A stretch of DNA of 63,631 nt, filler included, from Collodictyon triciliatum (lineage: Eukaryota), in NCBI GenBank assembly GCA_043381765.1. It is 19 parts of 19 records of this genome, joined end to end, with 100 filler letters (N's around TTAATTAATTAA, not from the genome) between each part and the next. Parts side by side here need not be neighbours in the genome. Positions count along the whole stretch, not along the records: positions 6,085 to 9,495 come from JBHJMP010007371.1; 18 more parts are not named here. One strand, given 5' to 3'. Below, piece by piece: positions 6,208-8,340 of the stretch. Position 1 is the stretch's first letter. Each line of letters starts with the position of its first letter. A model generated the notes under the pieces. The model did no database searches and had not been told where the DNA came from. It worked only from the letters and a program-made list of their open reading frames with translations. The position numbers and the translations under genes are program-made.

Positions 6208-8340
6208 TTTATTATTTTGAAGCTTTAAAGATTCCAAACTCCATAACCCAGAAATTTCTACAGGCAGTGAACTTATCTGATTATTATTATTATTTTGTAT
6301 AATTCAAAAGATGACCGTAGACTGTATGAAAAAAGAGGTAATTAAAGCAAGGTGTATGCAAAAACAGGACAGGTATTATCAGGACAATTTTAAATTGTCG
6401 GTAAATTTTTCATATGGTCGGTAATTCCCATACTATGTTTTGCTCCAGTCGAAGTAATTGCAGATGAGGCAATTTACCGAGCTCAGCAGGGATACATGAT
6501 AGCTTGATTTGCATATGAAAATGTTAAAATACGAATTAATCTATGGTAAACCATGTAATGCTTTCAAGGCACACACACATGAATTTATCTTGTTGAAAAA
6601 AAGAGGATAAGGAAAGTGTACACATGGAAACGTTTGCATTTCTATAATGTGAGTATATGACACTTACGAGGTTATTATGAGCTTTAAATGATCTTAAGTT
6701 GCATAGTTTAGATATTGATGGCGGAATGAAATCCAACTGTAGACAAAAAAAATCAAGATAAATTTTAATTTTTCATATACTGATATCGATGTAAGTAGAT
6801 AGCCTATGCAAATATCCGATTTCGAGGAAATTAATTGTCTGCATATTTTCATATTTTCTTTTTATTTCATATATGAAAAAGATATGTGATGTATTACAGA
6901 GTTTCCTGATAGGTCCAGCAAGAGAATGAAATCGAAAGAGGAGGTAAATTCGGTGAACATGCCGCTACAAGCACCAGAGAGATTCAACAGATTCTGAGAA
7001 AATTTATATTTGCTCCAAATGATTAAATCATTTGATGATAAGTAGTTGTCGGTAACGTCCAATTGAATCAGAGATTCTAGCGATGACATCGAAGAAGGCA
7101 GGCTTGATATCTTTTGTGTGTGCATAAATAAATAAATAAATAAATAAATAAATAGTGCAAAATGTGAATAGATGTCATTTTTGGGTGATGATTCATTTGG
7201 GCGGTTATAGGAATGAAATGAATTTCATTATCACGGGAAAATCAAAATCAAAATCAAAAGTAAGAAACCATATTTCCTTGCAGATCAAGAATTTGTAAGC
7301 CCAGCAATTTTGAAATTTCATCAGGTATGATGGAAATCTATCGAATTTCCCACCTTTAATGTAATGCTTTCAAGAAATAATAAAATATCTGTAATTGAAT
7401 GAAAGAAGTTTAATTGGGTACATGATTGTGGGTCATGTGAAGGGCTACGATGCCAGTCATTTGGAGCAGAACCATGGGGAAATTTGAGAACTATGAGTGA
7501 AAGTATGGTTCATTTTTGCAAAAAACAAAAAAAAAAACGAGAAAAGAAAACATAGGTTGCGTTGAAGGAAGAGAAGAGGGTATGACGGTTGTATCGAAGG
7601 GATGCAAAACACAACGGAAGGAATATAAATGAGGACTGATTAGATGAAGTTTGATGCACTGAATATACAACACATTTTGCTTGACCCACCTTATTGTGTG
7701 AACAATCCAACCTCGTAATTGAACTCAGTACGGATATTGAATCAGGGAGTTGGGATATCTCGAGAAAGGTACAAAATGTGAGAAACACATTTTATGGGTG
7801 TATAATAAAATTGTCTCGAACGAAAAGCTGAAATATTGAGATTAGATGCACAAGACATAATCCTGTAAAATTATAATGTCTTCTTTCTCTCTTTTTTTTT
7901 TCTCGGAGAAATGCTGATTGTATTTAATGAGGATTATAAATAAAGATAACGTTTTAGTATGTATTTAATCGTGGATTGTGCAACAATATAAAACAAAAAA
8001 TCATGAGAAAGTACTTGATTGTACCCCAAGTGAAAGGTATGCAGATGGACGAAAGAACATATCTCCTCTGGTAACTCTATGAACTAATGGCAGGGTGAAC
8101 GATCATATAACCATCGATGAATGTGAATATGCACTCAACAATTGTGATATCGAAAGGAACGAAAAAGAGAAAGAAAGTGATGTGACATTTAGTGAACCTA
8201 AATTGTAGAAGAGAGAAGATTGGACAATACTTTAATTTATTCATAGATGGAAATGTACTGAAAAAAAAAACCTCGTTGTGAGCAATGTTGAATACAGATA
8301 TATTCGAGTATGTCCAAACGTCGGAGGTGACATTTTTGAG
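6208..8340 (-). CDS. Leucine-rich repeat protein, internal exons, one LRR per 69-nt exon
   Basis: AG..GT-bounded 69-nt exons at 8272-8340, 8015-8083, 7690-7758, 7422-7490, 7269-7337, 6668-6736, 6434-6502 and 6208-6276 each encode one 23-aa LRR (e.g. ISQLPDSISVLSSITRLDCSHNK). There is also a 213-nt exon at 6898-7110. Confidence 0.9.

Follow-up and report, generated by a model that had tools for sequence, protein, structure and literature searches.

Does a gene built of equal, frame-neutral exons, each encoding a single leucine-rich repeat (LRR), work as a set of exchangeable cassettes, or is it an old product of duplication whose exons are spliced in order? This question is raised by an LRR gene on the minus strand, at positions 6208-8340 of a 63,631-base stretch of DNA from Collodictyon triciliatum (GenBank assembly GCA_043381765.1); this whole stretch is called the window below. 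An earlier note on this DNA had proposed that the gene could belong to a modular, diversifiable repertoire of LRR recognition proteins. We found that the exons are indeed of strikingly constant length and phase and that the gene is transcribed. Our results suggest that the locus is probably an ancient exon-duplication array, and they give no support for active shuffling of cassettes at this locus, in a sample that is tiny.

Exon structure and transcription of the LRR gene

A scripted scan for all stretches made of AG, 69 nt open in frame 0 and GT was combined with direct reading of the sequence. This identified eight minus-strand exons of exactly 69 nt, each with AG before it, GT after it and an open frame 0. 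Each of them encodes 23 residues, which begin with an (I/L/F)xx(L/I/F/V)P-like segment and whose final residues are Asn-x. The earlier note had described eight such AG/GT-bounded, phase-0 exons with one LRR each, cut just after Asn-x; the scan, the reading, the profile scores and the RNA all agree with this description, and the cut falls at this point in 8/8 exons. A ninth exon of 213 nt (7110-6898, phase 0-0), absent from that note, was found between the fifth and sixth 69-nt exons. It contains three unsplit repeats of 23, 25 and 23 residues and its final residues are Asn-Ser. When joined, the nine exons form 765 nt, or 255 codons, without a stop, and this gene fragment encodes at least 11 consecutive LRRs, eight on their own 69-nt exons and three fused in the 213-nt exon. 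The repeats follow one another in register as tandem LxxLxLxxN units with a variable segment, as expected of LRR proteins. Introns are in phase 0 and always positioned two residues past the conserved Asn. All exons are symmetric (phase 0-0) with a length that is a multiple of three and, as had been pointed out before, skipping, duplicating or swapping any of them keeps the frame.

The exons and introns are listed below from 5' to 3' of the gene. Scores are those of a hidden Markov model (HMM) trained on the LRRs of two other loci of the window only (the independent HMM). Matching contigs come from four runs of four studies, three of them metagenomes (two freshwater, one subsurface) that yielded DNA and the fourth an aquatic metatranscriptome (X3).

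Exon 1, 8272..8340, minus strand: 69 nt, phase 0-0, LKNVTSDVWTYSNISVFNIAHNE; degenerate LRR, 1.9 bits; the whole exon is covered by an RNA contig
Exon 2, 8015..8083, minus strand: 69 nt, phase 0-0, FIELPEEICSFVHLHTFHLGYNQ; 9.9 bits; RNA joint 8272/8083
Exon 3, 7690..7758, minus strand: 69 nt, phase 0-0, ISQLPDSISVLSSITRLDCSHNK; 29.9 bits; start matched by an RNA contig
Exon 4, 7422..7490, minus strand: 69 nt, phase 0-0, FSNFPMVLLQMTGIVALHMTHNH; marginal LRR, 5.8 bits
Exon 5, 7269..7337, minus strand: 69 nt, phase 0-0, ISIIPDEISKLLGLQILDLQGNM; 19.3 bits
Exon 6, 6898..7110, minus strand: 213 nt, phase 0-0; repeats of 23 residues (clear), 25 residues (irregular) and 23 residues (degenerate), with 20.5, -0.5 and 1.9 bits
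Exon 7, 6668..6736, minus strand: 69 nt, phase 0-0, LDFIPPSISKLCNLRSFKAHNNL; 17.8 bits; a DNA contig of run X1 spans the exon and both flanking introns
Exon 8, 6434..6502, minus strand: 69 nt, phase 0-0, LSCIPAELGKLPHLQLLRLEQNI; 10.3 bits
Exon 9, 6208..6276, minus strand: 69 nt, phase 0-0, ISSLPVEISGLWSLESLKLQNNK; 21.1 bits; donor GT at 6207-6206
Eight introns, within 6277..8271, minus strand: 188, 256, 199, 84, 158, 161, 165 and 157 nt from 5' to 3', all GT..AG

The GC content of the introns is 0.24-0.36, versus 0.38 in the exons. We estimated how often candidates of the same form arise by chance from ~53 kb of sequence outside the three LRR-bearing contigs: both strands together contain 117 stretches of AG, 69 open nt and GT (~1.1 per kb per strand). 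The independent HMM scored 94 of these 117 null candidates, with a maximum of 5.7 bits. In contrast, seven of the 11 repeats of the locus are clear LRRs by the same model (29.9, 21.1, 20.5, 19.3, 17.8, 10.3 and 9.9 bits). Six of the eight 69-nt exons qualify as clear LRRs; exon 4 is a marginal one and exon 1 a degenerate one, but exon 1 was accepted as an exon because an RNA contig covers it and joins it to exon 2. On the minus strand of the 2.1-kb interval, the scan returned 11 candidates, that is, the eight exons of the array and three others. The latter (8161, 7822 and 7611) scored -1.2, 1.5 and -0.3 bits and were rejected as LRR exons; their number is close to the chance expectation.

The gene is transcribed. 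Run X3 yielded two RNA contigs of 151 nt with at least 99% identity to the locus. One of them (record 11) fuses exon 1 (8340-8272) directly to exon 2 (8083-8015) with 100% identity over both exons, and the joint omits exactly the predicted intron of 188 nt (CT..AC on the plus strand, which is GT..AG on the minus strand). The 13 extra letters of this contig match the start of exon 3 (7758-7746) at 12/13 positions, and nowhere else in the window do they match with one mismatch or none (0.10 matches expected). Exons 1, 2 and 3 are thus joined in order in the sole splice-joined RNA contig. The other contig (record 10) is continuous over 7111-6977, which covers 135 nt of the 213-nt exon and indicates that this exon is unsplit in that part. 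Its alignment extends past the predicted start of the exon by a single base and ends there, consistent with a splice from exon 5. The RNA coverage from X3 excludes exons 4, 5, 7, 8 and 9 as well as 6898-6976, and the segment 7744-7965 is without a contig in all four runs. The remaining exons are presumably spliced constitutively.

DNA contigs from three metagenome studies span exon-intron boundaries with 95-100% identity. Since these independent contigs carry both exons and introns, the structure is genomic and not an artefact of assembly. All three exonic differences observed in other samples are synonymous: one was found in the RNA at exon 3 and two in DNA contigs, including a single change in exon 7 of the X1 contig. 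In addition, five intronic substitutions were observed in the DNA contigs, together with two indels. Several further matches to long metagenome contigs (X1 record 2 and X4 record 14) are very short and look spurious.

The gene is truncated at both ends in the assembly. The window consists of 19 separate small contigs with 18 linkers (N44-TTAATTAATTAA-N44) between them, and the complete pieces measure ~3.40-3.41 kb each, with one exception. Because the window is a chain of unrelated pieces, genes on either side of a linker are not genomic neighbours and the context of the LRR gene is limited to 3.4 kb. Many pieces start or end with microsatellites or homopolymer runs, and the piece of the LRR gene (6085-9495) carries a poly-T run of ~223 nt at its far end. 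The elements that delimit the gene are the following.

Linkers, 3416-3515, 5985-6084, 9496-9595 and 13007-13106, the others following at intervals of about 3.5 kb
Microsatellite (GAAAA)19, 6085..6179: contig end; 28 nt separate exon 9 from this downstream run, which halts the assembly
Scaffold gap of 642 N, 8416..9057: upstream of exon 1, concealing the 5' part of the gene

Exon 1 possesses an acceptor AG (8342-8341) and exon 9 a donor GT (6207-6206), which indicates that the gene extends on both sides into missing sequence. We searched the metagenome contigs for an extension of the contig and obtained 599 pattern matches, none of which was confirmed. An exact 24-mer of exon 6 had no match in these contigs, and a search of Rfam with 6085-8415 returned no match at E <=1.

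Protein class and age of the array

The protein class was assigned by way of a second LRR array of the window. The joined product of 255 residues is collinear over 239 residues with an uninterrupted LRR array encoded at 22413-23360 on the minus strand (pairwise BLASTP, E=1e-20). This second array matches the Pfam families LRR_8 (2.4e-17) and LRR_14 (6.6e-17). Its best match among solved structures is LRRD1 (1.6e-48), followed by SHOC-2 (1.5e-42), and weaker matches (2.6e-23 to 2.6e-21) were obtained with chains that bear the name 'Rab family protein' and that we take to be a bacterial Roco. Among longer proteins, the best matches are LRR-Roc-COR proteins and Scribble homologues. The LRR domains of SHOC2, LRRD1, Scribble and Roco resemble our locus in the 23-residue repeat and in the (I/L)xxLPxx(I/L) segment that follows LxxLxLxxN; they differ in sequence, with <=35% identity to named proteins even for the paralogue, through which the comparison of the locus was made. 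LRRs of this 23-residue class are typical of cytoplasmic scaffolds and of Roco or kinase-linked proteins. Judging from these sequence similarities, the repeats probably belong to the same class, and the protein may be intracellular.

Three of the 19 pieces of the window carry LRR genes with 69-nt, phase-0 exons and the same cut point. The second of these genes (locus B; 20550-23360, minus strand, on the piece 20124-23531) has six 69-nt exons at 20714-21881 with further LRR exons around them. Upstream of the one-LRR exons, it contains the exon of 315 residues that encodes the array described above (22413-23360), with about nine unsplit LRRs; at least seven one-LRR exons of 69 nt and phase 0 come after it. 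Three exons of locus B (21751-21364) resemble the next three (20944-20550): the DNA identity is 65% between its exons B2 and B5 and 50% between B3 and B6, the third pair is alike at the protein level, and only short exonic stretches can be aligned. This block of three exons therefore looks like an old duplication as far as the sequence can tell. The third gene (locus C; 24242-26207, plus strand, on the piece 23632-27038) is an LRR-kinase with three LRRs followed by a kinase domain (Pkinase, 3e-47). One 69-nt exon (24578-24646, plus strand) precedes this TKL-type kinase domain, and a phase-0 intron terminates the last LRR at the equivalent point of the repeat. The best database relatives of the kinase open reading frame (ORF; 24612-26207) are 32-34% identical. 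Neither this ORF nor the LRR ORF of locus B returned a near-identical protein, which suggests that the proteome of the source is missing from the protein collection. We also observed that GC content reaches 0.53 at 24001-26000 and 0.46 at 26001-28000, whereas it is 0.20-0.43 elsewhere in the window.

We then consider how old the array is. The ten repeat units of 69 nt (eight of them exons, the other two sub-repeats within the 213-nt exon) share 26-53% DNA identity in pairwise comparisons. Comparison with the exons of loci B and C, a narrow test that covers three loci only, revealed no match above 55% DNA identity. The introns of the locus cannot be aligned with one another, and comparing the locus to itself with BLAST recovered only one 16-mer and a palindrome. 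Tandem Repeats Finder (TRF) reported microsatellites only and did not detect the LRR array. The low identity of the units, the unalignable introns and the absence of self-similarity or TRF detection indicate that the array is old. The 16-mer, CTTGAAAGCATTACAT, has one exact copy in intron 4 (7359-7374) and another in intron 7 (6553-6568), both on the minus strand; it does not occur elsewhere in the window even at one mismatch (0 expected), and its flanks are unalignable. The palindrome (7016-7034; 19 nt, near-perfect with 18/19) is located within the irregular 25-residue repeat of the 213-nt exon and might mark a small insertion that lengthened this repeat by two residues.

Taken together, we consider it quite probable that this array arose by ancient exon duplication, within a SHOC2/Roco/Scribble-type LRR domain of an expressed, constitutively spliced gene. 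Nine introns are found at one exact position and in one phase, which is best explained by the duplication of a unit composed of an exon and an intron. Under this scenario, one such unit would have been duplicated in tandem long ago and its copies would have diverged over a long time. The loss of two introns would have produced the 213-nt exon with its three fused repeats. The exons would be spliced in order into one continuous LRR domain and, by analogy with other LRR proteins, the mature protein may form a curved solenoid that binds partner proteins. Both the origin by duplication and the protein-binding role are inferred.

Several observations weigh against this explanation. The argument for duplication is the shared intron position, and the locus carries no trace of duplication at the DNA level. 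By the independent HMM, the LRRs of exons 1 and 4 are weak or degenerate, and so are two of the three repeats within the 213-nt exon. The RNA amounts to two short contigs from one study, such that 5/8 junctions are without RNA support and isoforms are possible. Finally, the product of exon 6 alone (71 residues) matched no Pfam family at E <=0.01; a search against 5.8 billion proteins, restricted to the longer lengths, gave 262 candidates of which none reached E <=0.01, and solved structures were matched only at E >=0.3. Outside databases cannot place an exon this short and irregular, and the class assignment consequently rests on the paralogue and on the profile built within the window. The terms 'intracellular' and 'signalling scaffold' are guesses by analogy, with the remainder of the gene missing.

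Alternatively, the array could once have been intronless, like the 315-residue exon of locus B, and one point of the repeat could have received introns again and again because its sequence favours their insertion or fixation, in which case the 213-nt exon would be the original state rather than a product of intron loss. Split and unsplit repeats do coexist within single genes (here through the 213-nt exon, and at locus B, where about nine unsplit repeats precede the split ones), and lineage-specific intron gain has been argued in the genome paper on Physarum, a genome with similar features (PMC4758236). However, the nine codons just before the introns (GAG, CAA, AAG, CAT, ATG, TCT, CTC, ATA and AAA) share no protosplice-like motif, and the introns possess no common sequence of the kind expected of a mobile 'introner'. 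To gain an intron nine times independently at one position and in one phase is also less parsimonious than the duplication of a unit of exon and intron, and we regard intron gain as unlikely. It is far less probable still that the locus is a decaying pseudogene or a chimera of the assembly, whose exon pattern has no present function. Several repeats are degenerate, the gene is incomplete in the assembly and no annotated protein containing the 71-residue exon was found, all of which would fit such decay. These points are opposed by spliced RNA that is 100% identical over two exons, by a joined frame that is open over 255 codons, by the synonymous nature of the exonic variants and by the independent metagenome contigs that confirm the DNA.

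The remaining alternative is the one that motivated our question: the 69-nt phase-0 exons would be working cassettes of a diversifying recognition system, shuffled between paralogues through recombination, alternatively spliced, or both, such that binding specificity varies as has been proposed for the ROCO genes of brown algae. All exons are symmetric and the 69-nt units are equal in length, the same cut in 3/19 pieces hints at a large family, locus B presents an old block duplication of three exons, and real precedents are described (PMC3341825, PMC11378527, PMC6564038). The earlier note had also singled out a possible dead cassette in one of the introns.

58-nt 'remnant', 6781..6838, minus strand: inside intron 6, AG/GT-bounded; it would shift the frame, is not LRR-like and was counted as intron

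This stretch scored 2.1 bits with an HMM built from all loci and -2.5 bits with the independent HMM. Unrelated sequence gave 30 hits of at least 3 bits in ~53 kb with the LRR HMM, and the proposed remnant is therefore noise. A six-frame HMM scan of both strands of the introns of the locus for extra or dead LRR cassettes, antisense copies included, found none above the null (the two best scores were 6.0 and 5.8 bits, against a null maximum of 6.0). Recent duplicates were likewise not observed, with a maximum DNA identity of 53% within the locus and 55% between loci; the introns are unrelated, the only RNA seen runs through exons 1-2-3 in order, and 3/3 exonic variants are synonymous. The data are few, and they weaken the case for a cassette system, which we consider improbable here. 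Of the diversifiable repertoire proposed earlier, the frame-neutral modularity stands, whereas diversification is without support at the locus, where the units are diverged, the introns unrelated, relics absent and the variants silent. At this locus, the data speak for an old array subject to ordinary constraint. A broader version of the idea is that the genome harbors a large family of 69-nt phase-0 LRR cassettes that was invented independently of the brown-algal 72-nt and Tetrahymena 90-nt forms, with younger members that still duplicate, exchange or splice variably and thereby vary their binding surfaces, and with this locus as an old and frozen member. The three pieces of 19 that share the layout, one of them with a block duplication, offer a hint in this direction, and we give this version a slim chance.

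Other elements of the window

Several other elements were detected on the pieces of the window. Similar ORF fragments occur on at least four pieces (13059-13565 on the minus strand, 16179-16283, 26328-27086 on the minus strand and 59215-59671). The peptides that recur among them include SVIASWSGGRP and SKAGSKPARPSYS, and one weak match to zf-RVT (2e-4) was below the Pfam cut-off. These fragments probably represent a dispersed retroelement family. A separate fragment of RVT_1 was found at 47742-48122 (9.6e-11).

An ORF at 34152-36374 (plus strand) contains a hydrophobic segment and a kinase glycine-loop motif and, further on, the C-terminal part of a kinase (PK_Tyr_Ser-Thr, 1.6e-5). The stretch after the kinase part resembles the start of a nucleotide cyclase domain by eye only, without confirmation by any tool. 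If the cyclase part is real, this ORF would fit the 'cyclase kinase' family that the Physarum genome paper reports in Physarum and Acanthamoeba (PMC4758236). The simple repeats at the contig ends, together with an ORF on one piece that pairs a transmembrane segment with a kinase, may hint at a resemblance to the genome described in that paper. Finally, an open frame of 413 residues at 57276-58517 (minus strand) encodes NHL repeats forming a beta-propeller (NHL, 1.5e-14).

Known one-repeat-per-exon systems

Exons that encode one LRR each have been described in several lineages. The earlier note had compared the locus to the ROCO genes of brown algae, and this comparison is right in kind (PMC3341825, PMC11378527). 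The type I LRR exons of these genes are 72 nt long, in phase 2, and encode GxxPxxLxxxxxLxxLxLxxNxLx (Zambounis et al. 2012, PMC3341825; Teng et al. 2024, PMC11378527). Both systems have one LRR per exon, exons of equal length that are neutral for the frame, and tandem arrays (here, eight exons of 69 nt). In both, the exon type is also spread over several gene families of one genome, LRR-kinases included. The geometry differs: the algal exons of 72 nt are in phase 2 and are cut after NxLx, two residues later than the 69-nt, phase-0 exons of our locus, which are cut after N-x. Moreover, the algal loci have recently duplicated exons and paralogues that have recombined, they keep unused LRR exons within their introns, on both strands, and they produce many splice variants; in Ectocarpus, such intronic relics are a hallmark (PMC3341825, PMC11378527). 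None of these features was seen here, among three loci and one spliced RNA contig.

Tetrahymena, another microbial eukaryote, also possesses arrays of LRR exons of fixed length with a single intron phase, some of them fused to kinases. Its exons measure 90 bp and have phase-2 introns between them, such that junction codons are shared (Xiong et al. 2019, PMC6564038). These arrays comprise tens of thousands of exons in young, species-specific genes with links to a retrotransposon (PMC6564038). In contrast, the exons of our locus are 69 nt long and in phase 0, which makes them self-contained coding units, and their copies are old. Finally, the genes of the vertebrate gonadotropin (glycoprotein-hormone) receptors encode an LRR ectodomain with short in-phase exons of approximately one repeat each, in phase 2 (PMC11378527). 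An origin by exon duplication has been inferred for them as it is here, and their splicing is constitutive (PMC11378527); they differ by their phase-2 introns and by belonging to an extracellular animal receptor.

No description of 69-nt, phase-0 LRR exons was found in the literature that we searched, whose coverage leaves out most subscription journals. Slit genes have LRR exons of 72 bp. One repeat per exon is a principle that brown algae, ciliates and vertebrates already exemplify; the 69-nt, phase-0 geometry is a variant of this known design. The different length, phase and cut point look like the signature of a separate origin of the layout. Because the cut point and phase are unlike those of brown algae and the length and phase are unlike those of Tetrahymena, such a design seems to arise repeatedly.

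These results carry little weight at present as evidence for an 'adaptive' receptor repertoire in protists. To the few genomes with LRRs encoded as one repeat per exon, they add a further lineage and a further geometry, namely 69-nt exons in phase 0 that are cut after Asn-x. Arrays of 69-nt exons are easily overlooked by gene finders, and the array described here bears on how repeat proteins grow by the duplication of exons.

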